A stretch of DNA of 64,000 bases, taken from a virus. Taxonomy: Duplodnaviria > Heunggongvirae > Uroviricota > Caudoviricetes > Demerecviridae. A program made the position numbers and the translations under genes. The notes below the pieces were generated by a model, which was not told where the DNA came from, searched no databases, and saw only the letters and a program-made list of their open reading frames with translations. Positions 33,791-60,854 of the stretch are shown piece by piece (positions within the stretch are counted from its first letter, which is position 1; the number at the start of each line of letters is the position of its first letter). The stretch is taken from positions 1 through 64,000 of IMG/VR virus record IMGVR_UViG_2974604416_000001; one strand, given 5' to 3'.

Positions 33791-34355
33791 ATTATTTTAA
33801 ATCCGGTAGGGCATCTACTAGTTGCTCTATGGAATCAAAATACTTCATAGGGAATTTCTTATCCCTATACACTTTAGCTCTAGTCTCCTAATGCCGGTAC
33901 CCAGTTCCACCAGATAAAGCTAGGTCTATAGCAATAGGTGTGCGCTTACCCCTCATAAGTCTTTGTATGCGTCCAATTAGCTGGGCTATTAGTGACTAGT
34001 TATCACTACTAGAAGTGAGTATTAGACAAGACAGTATACTTAGTGATAGACCTTCCGAGAATATAGAAGTAGTGGATACCACCCCCTAGTACTTACCTTC
34101 TTGCACTTGCTCCAAGATGGCAGCCCGGTTCTTTTCCTCTGAAATAATTAGTGCCCACTTCTTTCCAGTTACTTCTTCCAGCACACTGGCAAGTGTTCGA
34201 GAGAAGTCTACTCGGTCTGAGGTGATAAGAGGTATGTGCCCGCTAAAATGGGCCTAAGCCTACAAGCAAACTATTTCCTTTAGGTAAACATCCTGACTAT
34301 ATAAATCTGTCACCTAGTTAGCCCAACCACCAGGCTGTGCTGTTAGGTTAAATTT

Positions 34356-35220
34356 CTACTTGGAGTAGGTTCTGAGAACTATTGGAATCATCACGTTCTC
34401 TTCTTTCGGGATTACAACATTCTTGCTGAACCACCCTGGGAATAAAACATGCTTACCGTCTTTACGGATTAGTGTACCACTAAGACCTAGCTTAATACCA
34501 GCGAAACTATGTACTAGTACTTTTTCAAAGGTGGACGCTGGGCAATGATGTACTTCATCCATAATCAGTAAACCAAACTCTCTACATAAGGATTGGGCAT
34601 GCTTCTGTACGGTTTGTATGTTACCAATTACTATAGGGGTAGAGGTATCTACCTGACCACCCCCGATTATAGAAGGTGTAAAGCCAAAATGTTTCCTAAC
34701 TTCTTGCACCCACATATCTCGAATATCCGTAGTCGTGGTGACTACCAGCGTCTTTAGCTGCAATTTGTGGGCTATAGCCAGCTAAGTAATAGTTTTACCA
34801 AACCCAGGTATTGCGTTAATAATCCCATTTAGCTAAAATCCCCCTATTTTAGGGTAACTAAGGAACTATTCCATAGCCATATCCTGAGATTCCCTCAACA
34901 CAAATAGAGGGTCTGGTATTTTCTACGGAACCTTAGAAGTTCTGTCTACAAACTCAAACTGACAACCCTAACCTGTTACCCGTTTGCACATACCAATGAT
35001 GGTATCTATGTGTCCCGAAGGGAAGGAATAGGCCTGTTTAGCTGTTGATATAGTCTTAATCTGGAGCTAGATTGGTTGAAACTTCTGATTAGGGCTTTGT
35101 TTAGGTAAAATAAACGTAAGAAGCTCTACCTATTGCTGGTGTTCTTCTGGCGTAAGCCGCATATATACTTGGTCTGATATAACCACCTTTCGTGGCTAGC
35201 TTAAAGCTTCTTTCTACGTG
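34356..35220 (-). CDS. SF2 (DExH) helicase, with at least 4 in-frame TAG in the N-terminal region
   Basis: Walker A IPGFGKTIT and DEVHH (DExH) motif; frame continues upstream through TAG at 34782-34784, 34833-34835, 34866-34868 and 34923-34925; 5' boundary uncertain. Confidence 0.5.
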
Positions 35221-35227
35221 AACAATT

Positions 35228-35482
35228 CTACGTGTCTCCAAAATCTAAAGGCATGTAACACATTGCCCCTAGTTTAACTAGGTAAACATATAAGTAGCCC
35301 CTAGAAGCAACTACACGTTCTAGGCCTCCCTCTGGGAGTTTGTACCACATTTCTACCCTGCTATCTTCTAGTTGGTTTGCCTTTATAATTTTAGCTGGCA
35401 CTACATCATAGTAGGTACTTTTTACCCACTTAAACACCCTGCCTTGGTTATTTATAAAGTTTAGCGTTCCACTATTAGCCAA
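35228..35482 (-). CDS. hypothetical protein
   Basis: 84-aa ORF. Confidence 0.35.
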   Translation of the reverse strand: MANSGTLNFINNQGRVFKWVKSTYYDVVPAKIIKANQLEDSRVEMWYKLPEGGLERVVASRGYLYVYLVKLGAMCYMPLDFGDT

Positions 35483-35715: not shown

Positions 35716-38124
35716 TCATAGTGCAGCTACGGTTGGGTACTGCTTCTGCAACTTACCACAAGAGTAGTCGAAGGAACCACCGTCCTCGGAGTCAGAATCA
35801 ACGCCCATAGGCGCCCCAGGGATCATTAGTCCACGGTCTTTCTGAATGTTACGTACAACAAGCTCCAAATACTCTTCCACACATGACTCATGAACTTCTG
35901 CTACTACCGAGTCATGAACCATACAAAGGATTTGAGCGTCGAGCTTACGTGCATTAATCTCTGCTTCTGCGTCAATAGCCCCCAGCAGCAGGATATCAGA
36001 AGATGCCCCTTGGATGATGGCATTAAACCCAGAACGCAGCTCTTCACCGATAACACCACGGTCACTAGAGGTGATGTTACGTAGGCGACGCTTACGGCCA
36101 AAGTGGCTGTAAATGAAGCCGTGGTTCAGAATCTGATTGTGGCACTCAGTAATCCACTGCTTCAAACGAGGGAATCGCTTGAAGTACACAGCGATGTATT
36201 CTTCTGCCTTTTCCTTGGTGCAAGGAACAAATGGTTCACCAGTTTTCAGGCTTTGTTCCAGAAGCGCTTCGTTAACTGCCTGCGCAACTTTAGCAGGGCC
36301 AGAACCGTACAAGATACCGAAGGTGATCGCTTTAGCGGCTTGACGCAGTGCTGGGAACAGCTTCTTAACTTCCTGTGGCTCACAGGACAAACCAAACACC
36401 ATGTGCGCGATGTTACTGTGGAAGTCAGGATACTTAGCTGGGTCTCTGGTCATGTTGATAAAGACTTGTTGTAGGCCCTTATCTCCAGACAGGGCAGCAG
36501 CCACCCAAACTTCCGCAGTGGTCATATCCACCGCTACGATTCTGTACCCTTCTCTTGCCTTAATACAGCCCTTGACGAGTGCGTCATCACGAGGAAGCTG
36601 TTGCAGGTTCAACGTACCACTGGAGGATAGACGACCAGAGGTTGTGGTGTGCAAGTGGAAGCCAGTACGTAGACGACCATCGAGGTCTACGTGATCCAGT
36701 GCTTTCTCGATGTAGGTGTTTAGCAGCTTAGAGAACTTACGGTACTCTAGGATTGCTTTAGCAATACTGGAATCTTGGTCTGATGCCAGTTTTTCCAAAG
36801 CTTCTGCGTTGGTTGAGTCTTGCTTGGTATCAGTCATGATACCAGTCGGTGTCAACCCTTCGTAATCAAACAGCAGTGTGCGCAGTTGAACAGGAGAGGC
36901 TGGGTTAAACGCTGAACCTTTGTCAAGTTCGTATCTGTTTACACTGTCGAACTGGTAGATTCGTTCTTGTGCTTCACGAATTTTTTCTGATACTACGGCA
37001 CTTGCTTCTTTAAGTCGAGAAACGCTGAAAGGTACACCACGAGATTCGATGCGCTGCAAGAAGCGGTTGCCTGGAATCAAGATGTTGGTGTAAAGAGAGT
37101 TTAGCTGTGGATTTTTACGAATAAGCGGCAAGAACTTATTGTGCAGACGCAGAGTAGCATCAGGGTCTTTTGCCGCGTAGACCTTAAGGATGTCCCAAGG
37201 GATGAGGTCGTAAGTAAAATCCTCTTTCTTGACATTATGCAGTGTGCAGTACGACTTTTTAAATTCTTCCAGCTCTAGGTCATAGTCACCCAAGTCAGTG
37301 TAGTCGATGGCCAAAGACTTCAAACCATGCGTACCAGTACGTTCGTCAAGGGTATAATGCTGCAACATGGTATCATGCATACGGTTTTCATCGTATGCCT
37401 TGTTAAAGTCGATACCGAAATGGTACTCAAACCAGTGTTGGTCAAACTTCAAGTTATGAAACACAATGTCCGCCGGAGAGTCAAAAATTTGCTGCACCAG
37501 ACCAATAAGCTTGGTATCAAACAAATCCGCATGGATATACCGGCCATAGCCCGGAGTGTCACAGAAGCACAAGCCTAGTGGGTAGCCTTTGCGGGCATAC
37601 AATGCTGTGGTTTCCGAGTCCATACCAACTGCCGGACTTTTACCGGACATGACATTTTGCACAACTTGACTAAGGTAGCTTTCCGCTTCCTTGTAGTCAG
37701 TGATACCTTCCCAGCTGCCTTCTGCTTTTGTTTGGCCAGAAACCAACAACTGACGGATCTTGGAAATGGTTTTTTCCATTACCGGTTTGTTCTCTGGTCG
37801 GAAAGAGAGAACAGCCGGAGAAATAGACGCAATAAACTTTGCGTTAGCCCAGGCGTCCTTGGGAGGGGCAATAAGTCCAGTGTAATCTGTTACCGAGGTA
37901 ACTCGGCTATACTCTTTCAAAGCCTCAGAACCTACCAGAATAGTGAAATCGTACTCCATTGGGTTAAACTGGATGTCAATGTTCTTCTTGGTCGGCTTCT
38001 TAATAGAAGGGTCAGAACATAGATGGTAAACATCTACTGGGATAGTCCCATTGAAGTAAATGTTAGAATAGTTCTGTCGGTTGGGGCTTTTATCTACTAC
38101 GGCAATTTTAGGTACTTTGGTCAT
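35716..38124 (-). CDS. pol: DNA polymerase I family with 3'-5' exonuclease domain
   Basis: about 800-aa intact ORF; exo motifs (GMDSETT...) and PolA palm motifs (VHDSVVAEV, ITFGILYGSG); TGA stop; zero in-frame TAG. Confidence 0.85.
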   Translation of the reverse strand: MTKVPKIAVVDKSPNRQNYSNIYFNGTIPVDVYHLCSDPSIKKPTKKNIDIQFNPMEYDFTILVGSEALKEYSRVTSVTDYTGLIAPPKDAWANAKFIASISPAVLSFRPENKPVMEKTISKIRQLLVSGQTKAEGSWEGITDYKEAESYLSQVVQNVMSGKSPAVGMDSETTALYARKGYPLGLCFCDTPGYGRYIHADLFDTKLIGLVQQIFDSPADIVFHNLKFDQHWFEYHFGIDFNKAYDENRMHDTMLQHYTLDERTGTHGLKSLAIDYTDLGDYDLELEEFKKSYCTLHNVKKEDFTYDLIPWDILKVYAAKDPDATLRLHNKFLPLIRKNPQLNSLYTNILIPGNRFLQRIESRGVPFSVSRLKEASAVVSEKIREAQERIYQFDSVNRYELDKGSAFNPASPVQLRTLLFDYEGLTPTGIMTDTKQDSTNAEALEKLASDQDSSIAKAILEYRKFSKLLNTYIEKALDHVDLDGRLRTGFHLHTTTSGRLSSSGTLNLQQLPRDDALVKGCIKAREGYRIVAVDMTTAEVWVAAALSGDKGLQQVFINMTRDPAKYPDFHSNIAHMVFGLSCEPQEVKKLFPALRQAAKAITFGILYGSGPAKVAQAVNEALLEQSLKTGEPFVPCTKEKAEEYIAVYFKRFPRLKQWITECHNQILNHGFIYSHFGRKRRLRNITSSDRGVIGEELRSGFNAIIQGASSDILLLGAIDAEAEINARKLDAQILCMVHDSVVAEVHESCVEEYLELVVRNIQKDRGLMIPGAPMGVDSDSEDGGSFDYSCGKLQKQYPTVAAL

Positions 38125-38169
38125 ATACTCAGGTCTCCTTAAACCTCTGTCCAATCAATCTCATCAATA

Positions 38170-39002
38170 AACTTCTTCAAGTAGTCTACCTCAGGCTTAC
38201 TAAGTCCGCCTGGGTCTCCGCCTTGTGGTAGTATATGGTTCTACACATATACTCTAAAGTGCTTAGATAGCACTTTTGATAGGTTCTGAGCAGCAGCATT
38301 ACCTGCGTCATCATTATCCATCAATATCACTACTTTTTTCGTATCTGCCGCAACTAAAGGTAGGCACTTTTGGTCAACTGTTCTATGTGTAACAGTTGAG
38401 GCACCAAATACCTAAGTCACGTTAGACACCCCCTTGTCCATAAGGTTGGCAACGTCAAATATGCCTTCCACTAGAATAGTTACTCCATTACTCTGCACAG
38501 CAGGGTAGAAGGGTATTTTTGCACCATCTGGGTAGGCTAAATACTTCGGCTTTAAGTCACTATACATAGAACGCTAGATTACTGCGCATAGGTTGCCTGT
38601 TACCAAGTCTGTAATTGGGAAACATAGGCGCCCCTCCCAGTTAGAGTGGGTGAACGCTTCTAATTTCTTGTAGGTATCCTACGATATATCTCTGTAGGTC
38701 TACGCAAAAGGCTCAATGGACGGTGGCAGGGTTATGCCCACGGAGAAAATGTTGAGCTCTTGTAATTTTCTCTTGAACTGTCGTATCTTTGGGGAAACTT
38801 TTGGTAGTTCCACACCCAAGTATTCATGAATAGACTTACCTTTGAAACCACACGCATAACAGTGGTATACTCCTAGCTCTTTGTCAATGTACATTGATGG
38901 TGAAGAGTCTTCGTGTTCTGGATTTAAGCACAGCACTAGGTAGTCCTTACCTTTTTCCTTAAAAGGAATGCCACGCTGCTCTAGTAGCTCTTTTACATTC
39001 AT
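38170..39002 (-). CDS. DnaG-like DNA primase (TAG-containing)
   Basis: N-terminal CHC2 zinc finger CLNPEHEDSSPSM...YHCYACG; frame continues through TAG at 38700-38702, 38679-38681 and 38574-38576; 3' boundary approximate. Confidence 0.55.
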
Positions 39003-39267
39003 ATTACCTCACTTTCCAATATTATACACCTAAAAAGGCCTGTGATCAAGATTTATAACAAAAAAGGAGATGATTTTACTCATCTCCTTGTTCTTCTTGC
39101 GGCACTTTGACTATGCTTTGCGGGATAATTTTCATGTAGTCCCACGACATATGGGTCACGAAGTTGATACCTGCTGGGAGGTTACGCAACTTAGCTACTG
39201 TAAGTGTCAGAACTGAGCCAGATTTATTAATGGTGAACTACATATCCACCTAGTCTAACAAACCTTT

Positions 39268-40434
39268 CTACATACGAGTGGCTCCGTTTTCATCTACTTG
39301 ATACGGTGAAATAACCAGAACTTTCTGCTTCCTGGCTATTGTGTTCTTAAGCATAGTTGCTAACTGTGTTTGAACTTTCCAATCCAGCCTATCCAGAGTT
39401 TTTACGCCCTCAAGTATAAGCTGGTTTACATAGTCAACAATTACCGTGGTTACTAGTCCAGGGTATTTTGCCTTTAGTGTCGTTAGTACTAAATCAATGG
39501 TGGAGATTTTTAGGTTCCTATCATCAATTACTACTATCGGTAAAATCTGTTTTAGGTGTTGCTTGAAATACGTTTCGTGGCTTTGGAATAGGTCTCTCGT
39601 AGGAGGCTCTTCTAGTGCTTTTAGTTGATCCATTAAGTAATCAAAACCACCTTCGTACTGTGCGGCTTGGGAAAGCTACAACTGTACTTGTTCAAAGTGG
39701 TTCATAGTACCATTACGTAGTGCAGAGAATCTGACACCACTGGCAGTCTACCAAAATCTCTGGTATGTTTCCTCAGCAGTCATTTCGATAGTACAGTACG
39801 GGGCTATTTTACCAACCATCCAATGGTGGGCACAGATGTTAATACAAAGTGCTGATTTACCAACTCCTCGATATCCACCTAGAAGAATAAGCTCTTCTTC
39901 CTTACCTCCCAGAAACTCCATATCCCAGCGCTCTGATAACCCAAGGGTTGAGAACTAGGTTTGGGTTTCTTCCTCCGCACGAAACATTGAAATTTCGTTA
40001 CCGTAGAATACTTTGTCAGAACTGTCTATCTCCTCTTCCACTAGCATCTAAATAGCCTAGAGTTCTTCCACTATCTCCTGTGGCCCTAACAAGGGTAAGT
40101 TGTCTGCAAACTTGTCTAACTTCTCGATAGCGATATGCTGGATGTGCTCGGCTTCTAGTTGCTCCAACTATAGTGAGATTGGTACGTCCGGTAGCTCCAC
40201 CTTTTCAAGTGCTAGTACCTAATGCAGGACGGAAGAGTTTCTGGAGTTAAACAGCTTTAACTCTTCAAAAGATGGGACTCTGGCATGTGCTTCGTAGAAG
40301 TTATTTACTGATCGATATACGCTGGAGAATAGGCCCGAGAAGTACTACGATTTCAGCTTTTCCATCTAAGCTAGCTTTTGCTCCTAGTCTGTAGACTATA
40401 GCAAAAGCCCTAGAGTTGTGCTTTGTAGTGACAT
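39268..40434 (-). CDS. DnaB-like replicative helicase (about 11 in-frame TAG)
   Basis: Walker A GYRGVGKSALCI and H3-like VIVDYVNQLIL; start ATG at 40434 with an AAGGAGC RBS. Confidence 0.55.
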
Positions 40435-40460
40435 CTAAGCTCCTTGAGTAATAAAACAAA

Positions 40461-40497
40461 ACAAAAAAGGAGGCACTTAGGCCTCCTTCTTTATAGC
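40461..40497 (-). terminator. rho-independent terminator
   Basis: aggaggc-actta-gcctcct hairpin followed on the minus strand by ttttttgttttgtttt. Confidence 0.6.
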
Positions 40498-40515
40498 TCT
40501 GAAGCCAGAACTTTA

Positions 40516-41253
40516 TTACTCAGCAGCTTCTTTAGCCTTCTTGGCGTCAGCAGCAGCCTTTTTAGCTGCTCCATCATAGTCAACAGCGCTCAGGCCACGA
40601 CGGGTCAGCATGGACTTAACGGAACGCTCGCCCTTGCCAGTTGCTTCAACCAGTTGTGCAACGGTCATTTCAGCAACGTCCAAACCTTCGAACTAATCGG
40701 CAGAAGCCTTACGTGCGCTAGCTTCCTGCTTCGGAATAGCAGCGATGCGACCTTCGCGGTGCAGGGACAGAGCCTTACCACGAATCTGCGGCAGGGTACG
40801 ACCCAGAGCAGCAGCAACTGCGTCAATAGAAGCGCCTTCGTTGGCCATTTCTACGAACACTGCTTCTTCTTGTTCGGTATAAGTACGAACTACTTCCTTC
40901 TTCGGAGTAGCCTTAACCAGAGAGGTCAGTTCCTCAGACAGAACCTTACCTTGTACGGTACGGGCATTAACTTCGAAGGACAGTTGACCAGCCAGTTCAG
41001 CGTAGGTAAACACACCCGGATTAGCGTTCAGGACGCTATGCAGTTCAGCAGTCTGCTCAGGAGACCATGCGGTCTTTTGGGCTGACAGAGACTCAACAGT
41101 ATAACCAGCCTTACGCAGCTTAGCTGCTACAGAGCGAGAAGTAGTGTCCAGCTTCTCAGCCAGGTCAACAACAACTTCTTTGCTTACGCTTGCCATACCG
41201 TCAACAGTGCTGAACAGGGTATTGGTCATTTCTTCGTTCCACTTCTTAGCCAT
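40516..41253 (-). CDS. alanine-rich protein in a GC-rich island (one in-frame TAG at 40693-40695)
   Basis: start MAKKWNEEMT with a GGAGAGA RBS; frame passes the TAG and ends in TAA at 40516; local GC about 55 percent. Confidence 0.45.
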
Positions 41254-42025
41254 TTGTATTTCTCTCCACAAGCTCTTTAATAGAGCCAATAGTTATTCCT
41301 AGTCCTACAGCTTTCTTATAGGAGCTGGATGTTGTTTTAGATTCATCTTCGCATACGAGGAAGTTAGTTGCCTTAGTTACTGTATCTTTTACAGTGTAAC
41401 CTAAAGAGGTTAAGTAGGTTTTCGCTTCGTCGCGGTTTTTAAAGTCATTCAAAGAACCAGTAATTACTATGACTAAGCCGTTATTAATAGGTGTTACATT
41501 GATTGGGGCTTTAGTACTAGGAACTACTCGGTCTTCTAGGTCGAACACCCAAGGATTCTCAATAGCAAATTCTTGGAGTAAACCGGTCAACCTAGGGGTT
41601 ACTACGTCCTTCATAGTGAAGGCTTGTTCCAAAGAACTGGCTTGTGCTGCTAAAGTTTTTGAAGCAGTAGCACCAAAGCCAGTAATGGCTAAGCCTTCTA
41701 GGAACTTGTCCATTGGAATCTTGGTCGTCTTGTCTACCAACTCTTTGTGTAGCTTATTAGCCATGAGGTCTGAAAAACCTGCATTTATAAAGTCTTCGAC
41801 AGTCAAACCAAGAAATTCAGGTATCGTTGATACCGAAATCTTTTCCAATGTTGCTGGGCCAAATCCTTTTACGGATAGAGCTTTGCAAAACTTTTCTAGT
41901 CGCTTGCCAGTCTGAGCTGCGCAACCAGCTTTGTTCGGGCATTTCAGTGTGACCGCAATCGGTGACACTACCCGTTCCAACAGTGTACCACAGCTTGGAC
42001 ACTGTGTTGGCGGAATAATCTTCAT
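41246..42025 (-). CDS. ligB: NAD-dependent DNA ligase, C-terminal subunit (Zn finger, HhH, BRCT)
   Basis: CPSCG...CPN zinc finger, HhH region and BRCT-like tail; own RBS GAAGGAGC; separate frame from ligA. Confidence 0.7.
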   Translation of the reverse strand: MKIIPPTQCPSCGTLLERVVSPIAVTLKCPNKAGCAAQTGKRLEKFCKALSVKGFGPATLEKISVSTIPEFLGLTVEDFINAGFSDLMANKLHKELVDKTTKIPMDKFLEGLAITGFGATASKTLAAQASSLEQAFTMKDVVTPRLTGLLQEFAIENPWVFDLEDRVVPSTKAPINVTPINNGLVIVITGSLNDFKNRDEAKTYLTSLGYTVKDTVTKATNFLVCEDESKTTSSSYKKAVGLGITIGSIKELVERNTNG

Positions 42026-42040
42026 TGAAGCTCCTTCACA

Positions 42041-42071
42041 CTTTGTACATACAGTATATCAAGTTTTGGGG
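42041..42071 (-). promoter_or_regulatory. conserved promoter-RBS cassette upstream of ligB
   Basis: reverse complement reads TTGATATACTgtatgtacaaagtgtGAAGGAGc; an additional TTGACG-17-TATACT promoter lies at about 42120-42150. Confidence 0.45.
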
Positions 42072-42203
42072 AAGTGAGCAATAACTATTTCACATTGAGG
42101 AGAACCCAATCCTCTAAGGTGGTGCTCTCCAAAGCAGATAAACAGTATAGCCCTAAAGAACGTCCACGTCAACCGCAGTTTAAAATGCTAACGGTAGTGT
42201 GGG

Positions 42204-43169
42204 TTAATCCGCTCTTCCAACAATAGTTGGGATAATGTCCCCAGCTCGAATAACCGCTACCTTACACCCAATTTCCAGACCTAGGGTCTCGATATACGTG
42301 ATGTTGTTCAAAGTAGCCCGGCTAATTGAAGTTCCCTTGATATCTACAGGTTCCAAAATGGCTACTGGAGTGACTCTGCCAGAAGAACCTACTTGCCACA
42401 CTACGTCCAGTAAGGTTGTCTCTACAGGCGGTTCGTCCTCTTTCACAGCATAAGCTCCGCGTGGGAACTTAGATGTGTAACCCAGTTCTGCAAACACCTT
42501 GTTATCATCTACTCGATAGACGACACCATCCTGTGGTGCGGTGTCAGCGTAGGGTCTATGGAGGGCTACATCAAATCCTTGGGCGTCTAGAATTTGCATA
42601 TCAGCGCTGTAGCTGTCTGTCATTGCTGGTACTAAGCCGTAAGCAATGAAAACAACACCATACTCTTCAAATACTCTCTTGGCTTCATTAAGGTCTTTTT
42701 CAGTAACTAGCTTACCAGAAACAATGTTTCTTGAGTTGGCAGAGGCTTTGGTAGCTACCACTTCCCCAGGTACTTGGACAATACCTTTCGCACCAAAAAA
42801 TCTATGAGGGATTTGGAGCAATTTGAGTTTATCAGTTACGTCCTGACCCTTCTCCCCGTCACCACGAGTGGTAGCACGAGCTAGGTGCCCGTCGAGGTAA
42901 ACCAGCTCAACAGCATTACCATCATACTTTGGGGAATCAACTAGCTGCTTGCCTGCGCAAGAGGTAGGAATCTTGTCGCCCCGCTTCGGATATACTTTTT
43001 GCAGAGAATACATCGGGTATGCCAGTGGGATGTCACCAGTAGGCCCAATACTTTTTTCTGCATTGTAGTACATAACCAAAGCATCATACTGCTCGTCAGA
43101 CAACTCTGGGGTGCCTTTGGCGTACAGCTCCTGATGGTGCTTAATTAGCTTTTCGATTTCTAAATTCAT
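42204..43169 (-). CDS. ligA: NAD-dependent DNA ligase, N-terminal adenylation subunit
   Basis: KxDG adenylation motif in SPKYDGNAVELVY; ends in TAA, 180 nt and one frame shift away from ligB (two-gene arrangement as in T5). Confidence 0.75.
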   Translation of the reverse strand: MNLEIEKLIKHHQELYAKGTPELSDEQYDALVMYYNAEKSIGPTGDIPLAYPMYSLQKVYPKRGDKIPTSCAGKQLVDSPKYDGNAVELVYLDGHLARATTRGDGEKGQDVTDKLKLLQIPHRFFGAKGIVQVPGEVVATKASANSRNIVSGKLVTEKDLNEAKRVFEEYGVVFIAYGLVPAMTDSYSADMQILDAQGFDVALHRPYADTAPQDGVVYRVDDNKVFAELGYTSKFPRGAYAVKEDEPPVETTLLDVVWQVGSSGRVTPVAILEPVDIKGTSISRATLNNITYIETLGLEIGCKVAVIRAGDIIPTIVGRAD

Positions 43170-43353
43170 AAAGTAGCTTTAACTCCTCATTCGAGAGGAT
43201 ATTAGCAAAAGCTGCTAATAGCCCATCTATGGTCTCGTCATTGTAGGGTAGGGTAATGCCATCTTTGGTGGGGAAATACTCCTCATCCCAAGTTGACCAA
43301 AACCACCTTCGGATACTGAGATATAGTTTTCCATTAAACTCGGACACTACCAT
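43141..43353 (-). CDS. hypothetical protein
   Basis: 70-aa ORF. Confidence 0.35.
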   Translation of the reverse strand: MVVSEFNGKLYLSIRRWFWSTWDEEYFPTKDGITLPYNDETIDGLLAAFANILSNEELKLLYEFRNRKAN

Positions 43354-43451
43354 TCTTATGGTATCCTGTGTGTCTTTGTATTGGCAGATATCAATGGAAA
43401 AGCATTCAGTAGAATCGGGGCCCAGTTCTGGCCCCGCCTAGGGAAGAGACA

Positions 43452-43718
43452 TTAGAACACTGAATTAAGCGGCTGAATGCTATTCACGAAACGCGGTTGC
43501 ACAGCAAAAATACGCTCATTAGTGCGGTCATAGATGACCAGATGGGGTTTACCGCCCAGAGCTTCTGCCAGCTGTGTACGGTGTTTATCGGTGATTTGGG
43601 GTTCCCACTTGCCAGGAGTTACAGTGGCTTGAATGAATTGGCGCTTACCGCCAACATACATTTCAAGGAAAAATTCATCCAGCTCTACAGCTTTAGCTTT
43701 CAGTACGGAAAATTGCAT
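43452..43718 (-). CDS. hypothetical protein
   Basis: 88-aa ORF. Confidence 0.35.
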   Translation of the reverse strand: MQFSVLKAKAVELDEFFLEMYVGGKRQFIQATVTPGKWEPQITDKHRTQLAEALGGKPHLVIYDRTNERIFAVQPRFVNSIQPLNSVF

Positions 43719-43738
43719 GTATTCTCTCCTAGTTATTA

Positions 43739-44137
43739 TTACTTGTTGAAGTTGCCGTTTTGAATGGCAGTGGCAAGGTATTGAGCTGCTTTGCCGGTCA
43801 GCTTACCAACGATTTCTTGGTCTACATCTTCTACACCGATAGCTTCCAGAGCTGCGGTTAGGGCTTTGTGGGCGCTGTCTTTGTTGACACGACCACCACC
43901 GGTTCCGGCACCAGCGGATGCTGCCTTCGGTTCAACTTTTTTCAGGACATACACACCAGCGTTGGTCAGGATAACACGGGCACTGTTCGGAGTAAGACCG
44001 AACTCAGTAGCGATGTTATTCACGATTTCCATCGTGACCTTAGGACGTTCTTCCTCGGGATACGCACTGATATCCTCTTTGTAGGTCTCGATTACTTGCT
44101 GTTTCAGTTCATCGGTGATAGGTACTGGCTTAGACAT
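43739..44137 (-). CDS. hypothetical protein
   Basis: 132-aa ORF; promoter cassette at 44160-44195. Confidence 0.4.
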   Translation of the reverse strand: MSKPVPITDELKQQVIETYKEDISAYPEEERPKVTMEIVNNIATEFGLTPNSARVILTNAGVYVLKKVEPKAASAGAGTGGGRVNKDSAHKALTAALEAIGVEDVDQEIVGKLTGKAAQYLATAIQNGNFNK

Positions 44138-44223
44138 TTACTTTCCTCGTTTTGTTGTTAAAGAGTTTTTCTCAATTCATGCAGATATTATAACGTGAAT
44201 CGGTGTTTCTAGCAATTTTTATT

Positions 44224-44574
44224 TTACAATGGAGTTTGGTACAGAACAACTTCTTGTAGATTCCCTATACGGACATTGGCTAGATTTCCGTCTCTAGGTG
44301 CCAGTGCTTTCTGGGCATGTAATGTGCGACCACGCATAATCCAGACAATCAGAGCTATAGACACACGCTGCCCATAAATGAAAAGGAACGGGTTGCCTAA
44401 CTTGTCATGCTTCCCCGCGGCCCCTGTAGCACCATATTCGTTACCATCCTTCCAACGCAGGCATGTGCTAGAAGTTTCATCATATACAAAGAGTTCATCT
44501 AACTCTTCTTTGGTAAGTTTCACCATTGTCTCACCCGTAAAAATTAAGAGGGCGTCTTTGCCCACAGGTTGCAC
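44224..44574 (-). CDS. hypothetical protein
   Basis: 116-aa ORF. Confidence 0.35.
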   Translation of the reverse strand: MQPVGKDALLIFTGETMVKLTKEELDELFVYDETSSTCLRWKDGNEYGATGAAGKHDKLGNPFLFIYGQRVSIALIVWIMRGRTLHAQKALAPRDGNLANVRIGNLQEVVLYQTPL

Positions 44575-44712
44575 CTTCTCTACAGGCGGTACAACAGTAG
44601 CCTACCCGCCTCGTAGTACCCCACTTATCAGTGTGTTGTATCGGACTACCCTCATACGCTGCTATTAACCTGCTACAGTAGTAGCAGCGTGCAAACACGC
44701 TGCCGTACATAA

Positions 44713-45414
44713 TTAGTCTCTCCGGTTGGCAGCCATGCGCGCTTTTCGCATAGTCTCATAGAGAATTTCCTTGATCTCGTCAGAGGACATGCTGGTAGTA
44801 AGCGACTTGAGGTTTACGCCCAAGGCTTCCAGATGCTTCAAGGAACCCAGATCCCACCAGTGATAGTTAACGTTGCGGTGTCTTTCGCTGTCAAGAAGGT
44901 ATACGCGGTATTGACCTTCTCCATGGTACTTACGAACTTCACCAATGCAACCATAACCGGAAACCCACACAAGCTCACCCATATCGAAGGTATCTTCTGG
45001 GCCTTGCTTGTAGCACTGGTCAGGCATTTGAGCAGGCCACAGAGGGTTCGGGGTTTCCGTTGTGCGAAGCAGCGCACCACTACGCCATAGAGCCATACGA
45101 AGTGCTTCTGTCGGGCGGCACAGACGCTTAGACAAGTCTGCCAGCGACACACCGTTTAGATAGCCTTCAATCAGACTTTCTAGCTCAACGCCTTCAATGG
45201 GGGTGCCACGCTTTAGCTTACGTCGAGCAGTATCACGTTCCTTATCTTCGTTATACTTCTCGATAATATCGGCCAATCGCTTGGTGTTGTAGGCGATGCC
45301 TAGGGTTTCACACGCCAGCTTTTTAGTTGCCCCATCCTCAAGCATTTTGATAACTTGGGGGATAAGAGCCTCATTATAATCCTGTTTTGGGCCACGGGCC
45401 ATAGTAACCTCCAC
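44713..45414 (-). CDS. hypothetical protein
   Basis: 233-aa ORF; promoter cassette at 45416-45450. Confidence 0.4.
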   Translation of the reverse strand: MEVTMARGPKQDYNEALIPQVIKMLEDGATKKLACETLGIAYNTKRLADIIEKYNEDKERDTARRKLKRGTPIEGVELESLIEGYLNGVSLADLSKRLCRPTEALRMALWRSGALLRTTETPNPLWPAQMPDQCYKQGPEDTFDMGELVWVSGYGCIGEVRKYHGEGQYRVYLLDSERHRNVNYHWWDLGSLKHLEALGVNLKSLTTSMSSDEIKEILYETMRKARMAANRRD

Positions 45415-45470
45415 TTTCCAATTTATGGAATAATTATATCAAAAATACAGGGTTTGAGGCAACGCTTATT

Positions 45471-45848
45471 TTACATTACCAATCCGGTTGAAATAAATGC
45501 GTCGAACTTACTTGCAGTATGCATGTCAGTTAACGGAGTCACTCGACCCTCAAAGCGGTTGAACCAGCTATGAGCTACCCCACATTCATCCATCCACTCC
45601 TTATCTCGGTCGGTGAAGGCTTCTTCTGGGTAGTGTAGGAACTGGATAGCAAAATTCCACTTGCATAGAGCTTGACTAACAGCATCTTTTTGATCGGAGG
45701 TGCTATAACTACCCAGGTAATGAGCATGTGCTGGTTTCAGTTCAGCAAACTCTTCTGGAGTCATGTCGATCAGCATAACACACGCGGTTTCTGGGACTTC
45801 TTCAAACAGTACGAGTACTTTCATTTTATTCTCCATATCCAACTGCAA
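45471..45848 (-). CDS. hypothetical protein
   Basis: 125-aa ORF. Confidence 0.35.
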   Translation of the reverse strand: MQLDMENKMKVLVLFEEVPETACVMLIDMTPEEFAELKPAHAHYLGSYSTSDQKDAVSQALCKWNFAIQFLHYPEEAFTDRDKEWMDECGVAHSWFNRFEGRVTPLTDMHTASKFDAFISTGLVM

Positions 45849-46058
45849 AAGTGTCGGGTGCTTGAGTGGGCCGAATCATTGCTGCCCACTCCAAATCTAC
45901 CAGGGCATTAGTTACTTTACGGGAACGGCCTGCAACATTGGACTGCCTACGGGAAGGCTTACAGCTACCCCAGAAAAGCTCTTCCTTGTCCAGATCCATT
46001 ATGTGCTGAAACTGACGAGCTACGAGATCATGCAGATAAGTTACTTTTGCCATTTTAA

Positions 46059-46520
46059 TCACCAGTCGTAAGTGAAGCCAGAATAACCACCATGAAGGAT
46101 TTCCCACATGAGGGTTTCGATTTTTTCTCGGGTCATTTCAGTGTACTCTGCAATCTCTGCATCGGAAGCACCGTTAACAACCATATGTACGGGTTCTTCC
46201 ATAAGAGTAACAAAGTCGCAGAAAGTATGACGCTCTTGGTCAAAGCAAGAATCTTTGCCTATGAACTTCCGAAACTCGGGGTAGCGTTCACGAGACGGAA
46301 CCCAGTCCAGCTTTGGCAGTACCTCAGCCAGTTCACTGAAAACTTCCCAAGCCAGTTTTAGGTCTCGGGTCTGGGTAGCTTCCTCAAGCAGTGCAACTGC
46401 CCCACTTTGGATTTGTCGGTGGCATTGCACCAGATTTTTAGCAGATACCAGCATATTAGATTCCCCATGCTTTGTGATGAATGTCCAGAAGAGCCATAAC
46501 CACTCGGTTAGCTCGACCAC
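46059..46520 (-). CDS. hypothetical protein
   Basis: 153-aa ORF. Confidence 0.35.
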   Translation of the reverse strand: MVELTEWLWLFWTFITKHGESNMLVSAKNLVQCHRQIQSGAVALLEEATQTRDLKLAWEVFSELAEVLPKLDWVPSRERYPEFRKFIGKDSCFDQERHTFCDFVTLMEEPVHMVVNGASDAEIAEYTEMTREKIETLMWEILHGGYSGFTYDW

Positions 46521-46641
46521 CTACTCTACGCATTTTCTTGGAAATATGGGTAGTCTTTTGGGCCAGTTGGGACTTGGCAATGTGGTCAAGTTCGTCCCAA
46601 CGACGGTCGAGCAGGTCATACAAATCGGTGCTTCGTTTCAT
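46456..46641 (-). CDS. hypothetical protein
   Basis: 61-aa ORF; promoter cassette at 46655-46690. Confidence 0.3.
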   Translation of the reverse strand: MKRSTDLYDLLDRRWDELDHIAKSQLAQKTTHISKKMRRVGGRANRVVMALLDIHHKAWGI

Positions 46642-46837
46642 TGCTAAGTTCCTCGTTTCAATTTATGCAATAATTATAGCAATTATTCAGGTCGTGGGCA
46701 ATAGATATTTTAAATCGGGATAACGCCTGATTAGTTGCTCCAGATTTTTACGTAAGTTTGGCTCATAGGGCTCCAACAACGCTGGAGCCGCAAAGAAAGC
46801 CACACTGAAAGGGTACACTTTACACATCATCCATTAG

Positions 46838-47026
46838 TTACCTCGGCCAGAACCTATTGTGCTGCCTCTCAATGGCACGCAACTTCCTATAGGTCTTGTT
46901 AAAGAGACCTTTATTATTGCGCTGCTTACGGGAGTAGCACCAAGGGTTTAAATCATTGTATGCCCTGAGATATTGTGACATGTAGATTTCATGCAGTTCA
47001 GATAGGTAGGTCACGTGCTTAGACAT
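46838..47026 (-). CDS. hypothetical protein
   Basis: 62-aa ORF. Confidence 0.3.
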   Translation of the reverse strand: MSKHVTYLSELHEIYMSQYLRAYNDLNPWCYSRKQRNNKGLFNKTYRKLRAIERQHNRFWPR

Positions 47027-47039
47027 TTTATATCCTCAA

Positions 47040-49967
47040 TTATAGCTCTAACATCTCAGAGTAGTCTACAGGAGACTCTTCCTTAAGTGCAGAAGGAAGC
47101 GGTAGACTATTAAAGGAGCAATACTTCTCTACGTTAAATAGGGCGTTTGCTGGTTCCCATACCCAATGTTTAGCATCCAAAGGAATACCTAGCATACTGA
47201 ACAATAGTGTAGGGATTTTGTTGTTATAATGTACACCGGCTCTAAACAGCTTTGGTAGGTTTACAAGACACAAGTCAATAAACTTGGCCTTCTTCCAACC
47301 CGCTTCTAGCTGTGCATCCATGATTTGACACAGCTCGTCCCATAACCCTGGAATCATCATGAATCGGTACGCTTTCTCAGCCTTCTTCAAGGTGTTATCC
47401 TCTAGGAAGTCGATAATCATATCCACAGTGATATCCTCTACTCCAGAGAAGTGTTGGACAGCTTTGTAGATCATCTGAGCATTATTTATCCTTCGTGTGT
47501 TAGGGATATTTTTACTCATGTAGATTTTAGTAGCGTACAAATTCAAGTGCTCCTCTGAATACATAGCCAAAGCTTTGTACTCAAGCAAGTTTTCTTCACA
47601 CGGAGGAAGAATAGTTACCTTGCTGGTTTTCTTGAGCATATTGTAGCGGACGTAGAACTGGTACTTGTTATGCTCCCGCATCTTCCGTAAAAAGAAGATG
47701 GTTTGCAAATCACCAACCATACCCTTATCAAAAGATGACAAGCACTTAGCTGGGGTAGACACCCCACCGTTAGCATCACCAGAAGTCCAGTAATGGACGT
47801 AAATCGGGTGACGCTCTCGACAGATAGCTTGAATGCGAATTGCTGGACTGTTTAAGCCAGATGACGTAATACAATACACATGGGTAAAGTACTTCTGGAA
47901 GTCAACACCAGAGGTCATACTTGGGCTTGTAATACAGATATCCACACATAGCTCTTTGAGGGCTTTTGTTGGTACAGCAGCGTCCATAATCATACGTACG
48001 TCTTCGTCATCCCGACTTTCTGCGTGAATCTCCACAATAGTAGGGACGCGCACTCCGTTAGCAATACAATGCTGTTGGATGCCGTAAGACAACTCGTCAA
48101 TCTGCTTAGGGCCGTAATCGGTTACTACTAGGATACGCATTGGTAGACCAGAGCTAGCGTTTGTTAGCATATGACCAACAATATCAGGCTCAGTCTTGTG
48201 CTCGTACACTTTGGCATCTAGGTGAGTAGGAACCTCAGACTGGTAGGTAATGGTTGGTTTTGTGTGCCCGACCAAAGCTGAGTAGGCTTCCACAGTCTCG
48301 CTAGAGGTATCACCGTCTGCCAAGATCACGTAATCACACTGAATCATTAGTAGATACAGTGCGTTAAGGATTCGGTCTCGGCGTTCAGAGTCAATGATAG
48401 CACTATCGAGGAGTTCTTGAATGGTGCTGTCAGACTCATCAATAAACAAAGTTTTGGTACCGGGGATACCAGTGAACCTTTCCGCAACTTTGTGCAAGCT
48501 GTGGATAGTGGTAGCGATACCGTTCTTGTTTATTTCGAAACCTAGCTTGGTGTACACGTCCAAATCCATCGCAGAAGCGATGGATTCTACCAGAGTAACA
48601 CGGTTGGTGACAGCTAGGATAGAACCCAACTTACCACGCTTCTGTAGCTCACGAACAGAATAGGTTTTACCCATACCCAGGGATGCTTTCAGAAAACTGA
48701 GCTTACCACGTTCAGGGAACGAGTCAGGTAGCACAAGCTTGCCCATAGGAGAAGGCTCACAATCGTGAATTTGGTGCTTCCACTTATTCTCCTTAGGAAA
48801 GGAAACACTACGAGCAACGTCGGCAATAGACCTAGCCATAGCGAAGCGGAAACCGTTATGTAGGTAATCTTTGACCTTTTTCGTGCTGCCATGACGTTTT
48901 GAGTAGCTCCGTAGAATGGGTGTAAGAATATTGCGCTCAAAGTCTTTAATGTCCAGACCTTCCTGTAGCGCATCAAAGTAAAGGGTGTGTACAGTTTTAA
49001 TGTACATGTTATCACTTACTTTACCGGTCATGATATCATTACACTTTCTCTGCAAGTTTGCTGGTAGCTGTGCTACGGCTTTATCAATCTCTGGATTAGC
49101 TAAAACAGGAATACCATCTAGTTTAGCCATGATTTCCAGGTGGTGCTTATTCAGCTCCTCGTATTCTGTTGCCTCAATAGCCGACTCCAGAGCTTTTGGG
49201 ATAGTAGCACTACAGCCAAAAGTGTAATACAGCCTATCTGTATTGTGGAAAGGGTCAGCCAGCCCCTCAAGAGTTGGGGGAGCCGTAATCAGAATACGTG
49301 CAGGAGAGTAGGTGGTATTGTCAAGGAATCCTTGCAGCTTCTGGTTAATTTGGTCAATCAGAAAACGGATTTGACCACCAGTAAGCTCGTGCTCATTCAC
49401 AAAGTAGAAGTGCGCACGAATACCGGAACTGATACCTGCCGAAGAGGATGCCAGAACAATGTGACCCATAGTCTCAGGGAAAAATTCTGGGAACTCTTGG
49501 TGTAGTAGGCCCACAATGTACTTACCAACTTCTGGCAAGTCAATTGGGTTAGGCGCAGACATATCGACCCAAGAGTCAATGTCAAACGCGATTAGCTTGA
49601 AGGGTGCATTGTGACTATCGAATGCTACCTTAGTACGTGGAACAAGGGTATCTTGTCCCACTTTCTTTTTACCCACTACCATCAGCAGGTTAGGGTTATT
49701 TTGGGATTTGCGTAGGAATTTTACAGCACTCTTAATGCTATCAGGATTTGCTTCCTGTACTACTTCGTAGTAAAACTTCTTCCTTAGATCGCCGGATTCT
49801 GCTTTTAGCAGAAACGGCACAGGCATACCATCTTCCAGCTTGAAGGTAGACGTTATGCTTTTAGTAAAGCTGGGGGTGTGAGTCAAAGGTACATACTCTT
49901 CCCTCATGCTATTATCTGAGGTTCGGATGTACCTACGCACCAATCTTGGAGCTAGGATAGAGAACAT
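47040..49967 (-). CDS. primase-polymerase (AEP-like DxD) / SF3-type helicase fusion-like replication protein
   Basis: 975-aa intact ORF; LIAFDIDS (hhhDhD) near the N-terminus and Walker A KASLGMGKTYS centrally; zero in-frame TAG. Confidence 0.45.
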   Translation of the reverse strand: MFSILAPRLVRRYIRTSDNSMREEYVPLTHTPSFTKSITSTFKLEDGMPVPFLLKAESGDLRKKFYYEVVQEANPDSIKSAVKFLRKSQNNPNLLMVVGKKKVGQDTLVPRTKVAFDSHNAPFKLIAFDIDSWVDMSAPNPIDLPEVGKYIVGLLHQEFPEFFPETMGHIVLASSSAGISSGIRAHFYFVNEHELTGGQIRFLIDQINQKLQGFLDNTTYSPARILITAPPTLEGLADPFHNTDRLYYTFGCSATIPKALESAIEATEYEELNKHHLEIMAKLDGIPVLANPEIDKAVAQLPANLQRKCNDIMTGKVSDNMYIKTVHTLYFDALQEGLDIKDFERNILTPILRSYSKRHGSTKKVKDYLHNGFRFAMARSIADVARSVSFPKENKWKHQIHDCEPSPMGKLVLPDSFPERGKLSFLKASLGMGKTYSVRELQKRGKLGSILAVTNRVTLVESIASAMDLDVYTKLGFEINKNGIATTIHSLHKVAERFTGIPGTKTLFIDESDSTIQELLDSAIIDSERRDRILNALYLLMIQCDYVILADGDTSSETVEAYSALVGHTKPTITYQSEVPTHLDAKVYEHKTEPDIVGHMLTNASSGLPMRILVVTDYGPKQIDELSYGIQQHCIANGVRVPTIVEIHAESRDDEDVRMIMDAAVPTKALKELCVDICITSPSMTSGVDFQKYFTHVYCITSSGLNSPAIRIQAICRERHPIYVHYWTSGDANGGVSTPAKCLSSFDKGMVGDLQTIFFLRKMREHNKYQFYVRYNMLKKTSKVTILPPCEENLLEYKALAMYSEEHLNLYATKIYMSKNIPNTRRINNAQMIYKAVQHFSGVEDITVDMIIDFLEDNTLKKAEKAYRFMMIPGLWDELCQIMDAQLEAGWKKAKFIDLCLVNLPKLFRAGVHYNNKIPTLLFSMLGIPLDAKHWVWEPANALFNVEKYCSFNSLPLPSALKEESPVDYSEMLEL

Positions 49968-53609: not shown

Positions 53610-53635
53610 GAGATTAAAGATAGGAGAAGTATGTA

Positions 53636-60845: not shown

Positions 60846-60854
60846 AATTTCATT

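Follow-up and report, generated by a model that had tools for sequence, protein, structure and literature searches.

Why TAG stands in frame in some replication genes of a phage and is missing altogether from their neighbours is the question raised by positions 35716-49967 of the 64,000-nucleotide stretch IMGVR_UViG_2974604416_000001 (hereafter the window). In this segment the genes for a family A DNA polymerase, the two subunits of a NAD-dependent DNA ligase and a 975-amino-acid origin-binding protein were free of TAG, and those for a DnaG-type primase and a DnaB-like replicative helicase were rich in it. The window was identified as positions 1-64000 of Aeromonas phage AhSzw-1 (MG676225 / NC_047950): by tblastn the polymerase gene gave a 99.9% match in AhSzw-1 at identical coordinates, and window positions 15000-64000 were identical to the MG676225 sequence. 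In the reading that we consider probable, AhSzw-1 and its Shenzhenvirus relatives have reassigned UAG from stop to alanine and exclude TAG from selected genes only, which would gate the translation of lysis, structural and some replication genes.

The AhSzw-1 record (115,739 bp; Demerecviridae, genus Shenzhenvirus; host Aeromonas hydrophila) is that of a T5-like phage. Its gene content and gene order are shared with T5_ev219, as expected of a member of the Demerecviridae, and orthology and synteny extended over the pre-early genes A1/A2/dmp, the split NAD-dependent ligase, the D-genes, nucleotide metabolism, the tRNA array and the pb1-pb11 structural module. The coding strand changes from minus to plus at about 50 kb, and ARAGORN placed 31 tRNAs at 58.7-63.8 kb. 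Open reading frames (ORFs) were called with TAA and TGA as sole stops, after which in-frame TAG was counted; for the whole-genome map the window was joined to the remainder of MG676225. The comparison comprised two metagenomic relatives (L002 and L003), the whole genome of TS3 (polymerase 86% identical), 34 kb of AhP_Mru1 (about 98% identical) and T5. Relatives were obtained from the protein database, from Logan and JGI contigs and from the GenBank phage collection; no relatives were recovered from IMG/VR with the DNA polymerase as query.

Uneven use of TAG as a sense codon

The products of nrdA, nrdB, DnaB, primase, D10, terminase, portal and tail genes aligned over their full length with T5-family proteins only when TAG was read through. 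The called gene set ended on 84 TAA and 34 TGA codons, and none of its members had an in-frame TAG just before the stop that hinted at termination on TAG. In nrdD the residues behind its late C-terminal TAG, the one late TAG checked, were conserved. About 507 in-frame TAGs were counted genome-wide (window and rest of the record), and every genome of the Shenzhenvirus clade that was compared was recoded. The features by which stop-recoded phages are recognized were found here as well: in-frame stops in conserved genes, a phage tRNA with the matching anticodon, and TAG that is absent early and enriched in late and lysis genes when temporal classes are taken from T5 orthology.

The deposited annotations follow the standard code in at least four of the five records of the genus (MG676225, MK318083, OP820700 and PV190393, whose feature tables were read; the fifth is MG676224), and this leaves a coding capacity of about 56%. 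Conserved genes are consequently split or missing: across the records nrdA lies in three to five pieces and terminase is a scrap of 68 amino acids. For AhSzw-1 itself the annotation cuts nrdA into three pieces and both nrdB and DnaB into two, and it retains only scraps of the terminase, portal and tail genes. The annotations of TS3 and AhP_Mru1 (deposited 2025) are likewise fragmented, the 2025 record holding 377 features.

The first-pass annotation of the sequence had listed the polymerase, the 975-amino-acid protein, NAMPT, PRPP synthetase, thyA, both ligase subunits and RNase H as devoid of TAG, and all of these remained at zero with TAA and TGA as stops. The counts behind its TAG-rich list (primase, DnaB, SF2 helicase, nrdA, nrdB, dNMP kinase and a 722-codon ORF) held too. 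Heterogeneity was assessed in 20,000 simulations of a binomial model in which all genes share a single TAG rate. For the 62 window genes of at least 90 amino acids chi2 was 513 on 61 degrees of freedom, whereas the simulated maximum was 142. No fewer than 40 of the 62 were TAG-free (9.4 expected, simulated maximum 20), and the remaining window genes contained 0.3-8.6% TAG. Inside 35716-49967 chi2 was 84 on 11 degrees of freedom (simulated maximum 63). The outcome was the same per alanine codon and genome-wide, and a uniform frequency was not seen once genes had been correctly delimited. Of the bimodal usage that had been proposed, the heterogeneity stands far beyond chance; the distribution, however, seems to have three tiers and not to be strictly bimodal, the TAG share of alanine codons per gene being 0, about 0.02-0.17 or 0.25-0.60. 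The patchiness earlier described within nrdA did not differ from random spacing (largest gap 242 codons, P = 0.39).

Such a pattern could result from faulty gene delimitation, with TAG-rich ORFs being non-coding or misframed. Wrongly extended 5' ends did account for a few TAGs, namely three upstream of the start of thyA and one upstream of that of DnaB; the latter start was moved to an ATG (40434) preceded by the ribosome-binding site AAGGAG. However, the TAG-rich ORFs align full-length to T5-family proteins and to those of the relatives, TAG positions are common to several genomes and the heterogeneity was still extreme after correction, so that the probability of an artefact is negligible.

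The density of TAG per gene in AhSzw-1 correlated with that in TS3 (rho 0.90, 76 ortholog pairs), also when only unshared TAGs, i.e. independent gains or losses, were considered (rho 0.82). TS3 had 2 TAGs in 8,995 aligned codons of the genes that are TAG-free in AhSzw-1, and 412, of which 229 were unshared, in the other 13,643 aligned codons. Thirty-five genes were TAG-free in both phages and 2 were discordant in that direction. Across AhSzw-1, L002, L003 and TS3 the same genes were TAG-free or TAG-rich, with for instance 15, 16, 18 and 17 TAGs in DnaB (the AhSzw-1 count before start revision), 16, 20, 22 and 23 in D10 and 16, 14, 17 and 19 in holin. Positions were shared as well: 10-11 in DnaB and the single TAG of the D5 ortholog were common to TS3, L002 and L003, 9-11 in holin to relatives, and 10 in a multi-pass membrane protein to TS3. 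The polymerase had no TAG in AhSzw-1, L002 and L003, and its TS3 alignment holds one TAG, not located; the 975-amino-acid protein had none in TS3 either. Because lineage-specific TAGs recur in permissive genes and almost never in TAG-free ones, gene-by-gene exclusion of TAG is an actively maintained gene property. The suggestion of two gene populations is thereby supported.

If TAG arose only by amino-acid-changing mutation and accumulated in weakly constrained genes, an uneven pattern would also be obtained without selection. Indeed, no codon one step away from TAG is synonymous with it, positions with GCN alanine codons are better conserved than those with TAG, and the partner residues are enriched for the one-step neighbours Q, S, E and K. 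However, TAG density was not correlated with protein conservation (rho -0.07; mean identity to TS3 70% for TAG-free and 68% for TAG-rich genes). Terminase and baseplate hub are conserved (87% and 82% identity to TS3) and yet hold 15 and 34 TAGs, respectively, whereas the ClpP-like gene is only 59% identical and TAG-free. This makes neutral accumulation improbable. The ClpP-like protease gene, which lies between holin and dNMP kinase, was TAG-free in four of four genomes at a conservation of 59-62%; as it lacks TAG despite this low conservation, it is the clearest sign that the exclusion of TAG is not a matter of sequence constraint.

Recent acquisition of the TAG-free genes from non-recoded genomes, one of two explanations put forward in the first-pass annotation, has a very small probability. 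A T5 ortholog is lacking for some TAG-free genes in the left block, namely NAMPT, PRPP synthetase and small ORFs. The large ones are nevertheless syntenic T5 core orthologs (polymerase, both ligase subunits and the origin-binding protein, and with them D2, D3, RNase H and the pre-early A1/A2/dmp), their TS3 orthologs are as diverged as those of TAG-rich genes and TAG-free or nearly so there (the 35 concordant and 2 discordant genes mentioned above), and NAMPT and PRPP synthetase are also present in TS3 with 82-88% identity. Together, the correlations with TS3, the missing link to conservation and the synteny with T5 lead us to reject artefact, relaxed constraint and acquisition.

The 975-amino-acid protein had been labelled a PrimPol-SF3 helicase and taken as part of a second priming and helicase system beside primase and DnaB. 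No support for this label was obtained. The protein is the ortholog of the T5 origin binding / helicase protein (phrog_3712). A Pfam search was without hit at E < 0.01 and a PDB search without hit at E < 1, and a CyRepA1-like stretch at residues 421-730 scored below the curated cut-off. As T5 carries the same DnaB, primase, D10 and 975-amino-acid ortholog, the two presumed alternatives are ordinary T5-family content.

In the ribonucleotide reductase genes most TAGs are lineage-specific. One of the 8 in nrdA was common to L002 and the rest were specific to the AhSzw-1 lineage, total counts for nrdA being 0 in TS3, 0 in L003 and 1 in L002. The 4 TAGs of nrdB were almost all specific to this lineage too (totals 0 in TS3, 1 in L003 and 1 in L002). 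Since nearly all TAGs of this pair are lineage-specific, gain of TAG appears to be still ongoing in permissive genes.

Alanine as the probable meaning of TAG, and the suppressor tRNA

The meaning of TAG, a point absent from the first-pass annotation, was derived from the residues aligned with it. Opposite 238 AhSzw-1 TAGs, T5 had alanine 62, serine 26, glutamine 16, lysine 14 and valine 13 times. With substitution frequencies taken from the same alignments, the log likelihood against T5 was -635 for alanine, -695 for serine, -718 for threonine and -732 for glutamine, and alanine was also top-ranked against TS3 and against L002/L003. At TAGs common to AhSzw-1 and TS3, T5 had alanine in 38/110 cases (35%), compared with 39% for GCN alanines. 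The 15 TAG positions of the large terminase were further compared with 110 distant non-recoded homologs. Six of them fell in columns with an alanine majority; position 158 was alanine in 110/110 homologs, and positions 49, 359, 349, 182 and 76 in 101, 98, 95, 89 and 61 of them, respectively. The terminase log likelihood was -32.6 for alanine and -52.4 for serine. At these alanine columns the database proteins of the clade alternate between 'Q', which is TAG under translation table 15, and a genuine 'A'. The C-terminus of nrdD, KLXEIKDRRSM*, aligned with KLAEIKDRVSM* of TS3, and in the multi-pass membrane protein the helices read naturally with TAG as alanine, e.g. GAVAGVVAAAYSASLPASIA.

The turnover of TAG was that of a codon without synonyms. 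Between AhSzw-1 and AhP_Mru1 19.6% of 7,783 codons were changed synonymously; 70 of 73 TAGs (96%) were unchanged, as compared with 97% of methionine, 100% of tryptophan, 83% of glutamine and 76% of GCN alanine codons. Against TS3, TAG was retained in 45%, replaced by GCN in 13% and by another residue in 41%. A turnover like that of methionine and tryptophan fits TAG as alanine because TAG then has no synonymous one-step neighbour.

Under translation table 15 TAG would be glutamine, and the pattern among genes would be the ordinary behaviour of that code. MG676225 was placed under this table in Cook et al. 2024. Logan-derived proteins of the clade show Q at TAG positions, and glutamine was the third most frequent partner residue. 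tRNAs with a CUA anticodon are often mischarged by glutaminyl-tRNA synthetase (GlnRS). The likelihood of glutamine was however 97 log units below that of alanine against T5 and 92 against TS3, and for the terminase columns, one of them invariant alanine, it was outside the top six. TAG hardly exchanged with CAG or CAA, whereas 15.4% of glutamine codons had changed synonymously between AhSzw-1 and AhP_Mru1; at most 2 TAG-CAR exchanges would have P = 5e-4 if TAG were glutamine. The TAG-rich genes of the window are depleted of GCN alanine (5.3% vs 7.2% in TAG-free genes), and their glutamine is already higher than in TAG-free genes; glutamine at TAG would raise it to 8-12% and would put runs of Q inside transmembrane helices. 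The alanine depletion is suggestive rather than decisive, as genome-wide the GCN content of TAG-rich genes is about 7.4%, near that of TAG-free genes. Glutamine was thus not the best match to TAG positions in alignments, and the tRNA is not of glutamine type: the suppressor tRNA described below has G3:U70 and A73 and lacks the glutamine identity set of the phage tRNA-Gln(UUG), which shows the U1-U72 mismatch and G73. Glutamine is accordingly a very improbable meaning of TAG.

Serine was second best in every likelihood test, 20-60 log units worse than alanine, and was rejected for this reason and because the suppressor has a short variable arm instead of a long one. The nucleotide after TAG showed a mild excess of G (0.39 vs 0.33) and no strong suppression context.

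ARAGORN identified an amber suppressor tRNA with the anticodon CUA in the array. It is 75 nt long with an encoded CCA and a 5-nt variable loop, which is not of type II. Its acceptor stem GGGGAUG/CAUCUCC has the pairs G1-C72, G2-C71 and G3:U70 and is followed by the discriminator A73. The tRNA-Ala identity elements G3:U70, A73, G2:C71 and a short variable loop are therefore all present. An ordinary tRNA-Ala(UGC) begins 7 nt downstream, and the tRNA-Ala of T5 also has the G3:U70 pair. Among 50,697 phage records the suppressor was 100% identical in five phages (AhSzw-1, AhSzq-1, Akh-2, TS3 and AhP_Mru1) between which proteins diverge by 15-35%; the full-length matches that ranked next were annotated tRNA-Ala. 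A comparison with E. coli genomes was uninformative, yielding matches to plasmid tRNA-Arg and tRNA-Asn only and to no chromosomal tRNA. As alanyl-tRNA synthetase (AlaRS) recognizes G3:U70 and not the anticodon according to established identity rules, the host enzyme should charge the suppressor without a phage-encoded synthetase.

The suppressor also resembles a glutamine tRNA. It is 71% identical to the tRNA-Gln(CUG) of T5_ev219 (30544-30619), with GGGAUG/CAUCUC versus GGGAUG/CAUCCC at acceptor positions 2-7, and the acceptor differences between the two lie exactly at 1:72, 70 and 73. The suppressor could conceivably have arisen from a supE-like tRNA-Gln(CUA) whose identity then switched to alanine; overall it is slightly nearer to tRNA-Ala sequences than to tRNA-Gln(CUG). 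Two irregular tRNA-like genes were seen in the same array (Table 1). One was reported by ARAGORN as 'tRNA-???' with a two-base anticodon and ends in GATA instead of CCA. The other, found by Rfam only (41 bits), directly follows tRNA-Gln(UUG), and T5 has a second tRNA-Gln(CUG) at the matching place.

Possible roles of timing and abundance in the exclusion of TAG

The features considered are listed in Table 1, together with the functional groups into which TAG usage falls. Holin, spanin, tail, terminase, DnaB, primase, D10 helicase, SbcCD and HNH endonuclease genes prefer TAG, and taken together the TAG-rich genes use it more than any other alanine codon (472 vs 338 GCT; 37% of alanine codons). 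By contrast, it is missing from an extended block of genes for auxiliary metabolism. The G+C content at third codon positions was 0.405 in TAG-rich early-region genes, 0.412 in late genes and 0.448 in TAG-free genes. With a host G+C of 61% (PMC7157608), the lower values place TAG-rich genes further from host codon usage.

Table 1. Genes, tRNAs and sites discussed, with their in-frame TAG (TAGs/codons, number or percentage of codons). Positions refer to the window unless marked as genome positions.
Feature	Position	Strand	TAG	Remarks
NAMPT-like phosphoribosyltransferase	200..1798	-	0/532	Pfam PF04095; leftmost gene of the 19-gene block
PRPP synthetase	2039..2833	-	0/264	NCBIfam TIGR01251
19-gene block	200-11070		0	uninterrupted TAG-free run
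Rz-like spanin	11349..11867	-	9/172 (5.2%)	PHROG lysis families
Multi-pass membrane protein	15203..15775	-	18/190	function unassigned; densest gene
Protein of unassigned function	18865..19659	-	15/264	
Thymidylate synthase (thyA)	20129..20977	-	0	from annotated start 20977
Holin	23507..24295	-	16/262 (6.1%)	T5 holin ortholog; phrog_860, E = 9e-34
ClpP-like protease	24310-25137	-	0	
dNMP kinase	25134..25802	-	5/222	
RNase H	27103..27576	-	0/157	
nrdB, ribonucleotide reductase beta subunit	28517..29638	-	4/373	
nrdA, class Ia ribonucleotide reductase alpha subunit	29834..32086	-	8/750	
SF2 helicase	33792..35261	-	16/489	T5 D10 ortholog
Terminator-like site after polymerase	35680-35701	-		hairpin and T-run
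Family A DNA polymerase	35716..38154	-	0/812	T5 D7-D9 ortholog; Pfam PF00476, PF01612; 58% identity to T5
DnaG-type primase	38139..39002	-	5/287	Toprim and Zn-ribbon Pfam hits on ortholog
Terminator-like site	39064-39089	-		hairpin and T-run
DnaB-like replicative helicase	39076..40434	-	14/452	after start revision
Terminator-like site	40461-40494	-		hairpin and T-run
DNA-binding protein	40516..41289	-	1/257	T5 D5 ortholog
NAD-dependent DNA ligase subunit B	41246..42025	-	0/259	Pfam BRCT and ZBD domains
NAD-dependent DNA ligase subunit A	42204..43169	-	0/321	Pfam
975-aa replication origin binding / helicase protein	47040..49967	-	0/975	phrog_3712, E = 0; T5 ortholog at 60222-63011
nrdD, anaerobic ribonucleotide reductase	51609..53636	+	2	
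722-codon ORF	54484..56652	+	37 (5.1%)	function unassigned; conserved within clade only
Irregular tRNA-like gene (Rfam)	59398-59469	+		
Amber suppressor tRNA, anticodon CUA	60691..60765	+		ARAGORN; Rfam tRNA score 69.5 bits, best in array
tRNA-Ala(UGC)	60772..60846	+		G3:U70 and A73
Irregular tRNA-like gene (ARAGORN)	61597-61670	+		
NMNAT and nicotinamide riboside transporter	genome 68729-70464		0	
HNH homing endonuclease	genome 76905-77387		9/160 (5.6%)	
T5 pre-early homologs (dmp, A1, A2)			0	
D11, D2, D3, DHFR, and NMNAT / nicotinamide riboside transporter, polymerase, ligase, origin-binding protein and RNase H as above			0	
D5, flap endonuclease, nrdD, nrdA/B, PhoH, major capsid (2/466), tail tube (3/379), protease, portal			0.3-1.7%	
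DnaB, D10, primase			1.7-3.3%	
Terminase			3.5%	
SbcC			3.8%	
Tail proteins (tail fibre 84/1676, tape measure 66/1285)			3.5-5.7%	

The split between genes runs through what seems to be a single operon. The start of the polymerase gene overlaps the stop of the primase gene (38139). When 33-52 kb was scanned for promoter and terminator consensus sites, these were no more numerous than in shuffled sequences (29 vs 28.4 promoters); in this weak scan the sole promoter-like site of the pair lay upstream of primase and the sole terminator-like site downstream of the polymerase. The primase, with 5 TAGs, and the polymerase, with none, thus appear to be co-transcribed, and because they also overlap, a gate that separates these two would not be transcriptional. 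Strong hairpins with a T-run resembling terminators were seen on the minus strand on both sides of DnaB and after the polymerase. Since such sites flank it, DnaB may form a transcription unit separate from D5 and from the primase-polymerase pair.

The following mechanism is proposed. Host AlaRS, blind to the anticodon, would charge the phage CUA tRNA with alanine, as the identity rules predict. Release factor 2 alone would finish the phage genes, which is suggested by called genes that end on TAA or TGA without a TAG before the stop, and loss of release factor 1 (RF1) activity might be tolerated or even beneficial. TAG-free genes should be translatable by the unmodified host machinery. The pre-early genes would necessarily be TAG-free if, as homology with T5 predicts, it is not until the second DNA transfer step that the tRNA gene (about 60.7 kb) reaches the cell. 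TAG-containing genes would give full-length protein only once the suppressor has accumulated. TAG would then gate the translation of lysis, structural and some replication and recombination genes, even when these are co-transcribed with TAG-free genes, and a milder cost may keep TAG low in very abundant proteins (major capsid, tail tube and D5). On the distribution of TAG, a temporal gate is plausible.

TAGs were somewhat enriched towards the 5' end. The first TAG lay at a mean relative position of 0.109, where 0.184 was expected (P = 0.0004), and in 30 of 44 genes a TAG occurred within the first 30 codons. This measure is sensitive to the choice of start, and GCN alanines trend likewise, although more weakly. 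Such an enrichment would suit a gate that aborts translation early.

TAG might also have no role in timing and simply be a costly or slow alanine codon, owing to competition with RF1, that is removed in proportion to expression level. TAG was low in the major capsid protein (0.4%), tail tube (0.8%), protease (0.9%) and D5 (0.4%), and 3.5-5.7% in low-copy tail and head-completion proteins. For nine structural proteins TAG density fell with virion copy number (rho = -0.64, permutation P = 0.036; T5 copy numbers from PMC11313276). This suggests that protein abundance imposes a second, graded cost on the decoding of TAG. However, its total absence over about 9,000 codons, which include many small accessory genes unlikely to be highly expressed and which carry only 2 TAGs in TS3, exceeds a graded prediction. 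The catalytic polymerase and ligase would not be expected to exceed DnaB or primase in abundance, and a purely deleterious codon would hardly be the preferred alanine codon of permissive genes. Under two-step injection the pre-early genes would moreover be TAG-free for a physical reason. Expression cost without timing is therefore the less likely explanation, though it keeps appreciably more weight than the other alternatives considered.

Several points weigh against alanine recoding with a temporal gate. As to the amino acid, 41% of TAGs had changed to another amino acid in TS3 as against 29% of GCN alanine positions, and glutamine and serine were over-represented among the partner residues. 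The latter excess fits an origin of TAG from the one-step neighbours CAG and TCG, and a minor share of glutamine insertion by mischarging may occur. The 84 TAGs of the tail-fibre gene demand a decoding that is about 98-99% efficient or better, and since a single gene holds them all, suppression late in infection would have to be nearly complete. As to the gate, the timing step is one that we infer. In T5 the polymerase, DnaB, primase and D10 genes are all 'early', and we know of no independent temporal subdivision of T5 genes that matches the TAG split. A literature search yielded no usable time-course transcriptome of T5 for temporal subclasses of the orthologs. Finally, the abundance correlation relates to nine proteins and uses T5 copy numbers.

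A few further genes deserve mention. The multi-pass membrane protein contained 8.6% TAG as a 209-codon ORF and 9.5% from the revised start (190 codons). The 722-codon ORF, rich in Asn, Gly, Ser and Tyr and situated just upstream of the tRNA array, is annotated in GenBank merely as a 63-amino-acid piece. It belonged to no Pfam or PHROG family and had no recognizable ortholog in TS3; as its homologs (93%, 32% and 28% identity) are confined to the recoded clade, it is uninformative about the amino acid at TAG. The phage encodes a full NAD+ salvage set, namely NAMPT and PRPP synthetase (window 200-2833) and NMNAT and a nicotinamide riboside transporter in the right part of the genome, and all four are TAG-free. 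The HNH homing endonuclease gene lies between D14 and flap endonuclease, neighbours with 3 and 1 TAG, and had no counterpart at the same place in TS3.

Comparison with other reassigned UAG codons

Recoded phages of the crAss-like, Lak and other groups (Ivanova 2014; Yutin 2021; Borges et al. 2022; Peters et al. 2022) resemble AhSzw-1 in having in-frame TAG in conserved genes, a phage CUA tRNA and a standard-code host. In such phages early genes were described as compatible with the standard code and late and lysis genes as recoded, with holin and homing endonuclease heavily so, and a translational gate on late functions was proposed as the role of recoding; only TAG read as glutamine and TGA read as tryptophan were reported where the phage code differs from that of the host (Borges et al., bioRxiv 10.1101/2021.08.26.457843). 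AhSzw-1 differs from these phages in four respects. TAG is probably read here as alanine through an identity set of AlaRS type and not as glutamine. The phage is a cultured T5-like virus of a gammaproteobacterium and not an uncultured gut phage. Its TAG, without a synonymous one-step neighbour, evolves like the codon of a single-codon amino acid. The boundary between TAG-free and TAG-rich genes divides the replication module, including what looks like a single operon.

Stop recoding in phages has been thought to be limited to glutamine (TAG) or tryptophan (TGA), supposedly because GlnRS and tryptophanyl-tRNA synthetase are easily hijacked. Alanine would represent a third and mechanistically simpler route, by way of a synthetase that ignores the anticodon. 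Databases that use table 15 would then place glutamine at about 500 alanine positions per genome. Since TAG as alanine has no synonymous one-step neighbour, it is a natural 'trapped' codon with which the spread of a reassigned codon can be studied. Moreover, these phages form plaques on Aeromonas hydrophila, have T5-like temporal classes and probably inject their DNA in two steps, which makes the timing hypothesis testable beyond metagenomes.

Recoding of this lineage has been recorded before. In Supplementary Table S1 of Cook et al. 2024, MG676225, MG676224 and MK318083 are listed as stop-codon reassigned under table 15, among sporadic cases in the Demerecviridae. That entry is prodigal-gv output, in which table 15 (TAG as glutamine) is the sole TAG option, and it comprises no amino-acid inference, tRNA analysis or per-gene distribution; the word 'alanine' does not occur in Cook et al. 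2024. The papers found to cite AhSzw-1 do not mention recoding. A non-exhaustive literature search, which may have missed an unindexed report, returned UAG to alanine only for the mitochondria of green algae (Sphaeropleales and Pedinophyceae; PMC6551751, PMC6821328, PMC12574857). On balance we lean, by a modest degree, towards a natural code with UAG as alanine not previously described in a virus or bacterium, implemented by a CUA anticodon on a G3:U70 stem, in which TAG has been purged from genes that act before the tRNA and serves as a translational timer that splits co-transcribed replication genes.

The green-algal mitochondria share with AhSzw-1 the codon and its meaning. They are however organelles with tiny gene sets and their own translation, without gene-selective use or a conflict between the codes of virus and host. 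DnaB, primase, D10 helicase and the large origin-binding helicase are likewise present in T5, with 0 in-frame TAG in any ortholog, and its tRNA list is without a CUA tRNA. The tRNA itself has counterparts from the laboratory. In E. coli, UAG is read as alanine by tRNAs that combine a CUA anticodon with a G3:U70 / A73 stem, as AlaRS ignores the anticodon. tRNA-Ala(CUA) suppressors and transplants of G3:U70 were reportedly made by Hou and Schimmel in 1988, McClain and Foss in 1988 and Normanly et al. in 1990. Those tRNAs were engineered, whereas that of AhSzw-1 occurs naturally, has become fixed in a lineage of phages and decodes about 500 codons in each genome. Recoding in AhSzw-1 and, in principle, selective use of TAG are already known; what appears to be new is the alanine meaning, its simple tRNA basis, the dynamics of a trapped codon and the division of genes within a replication operon.

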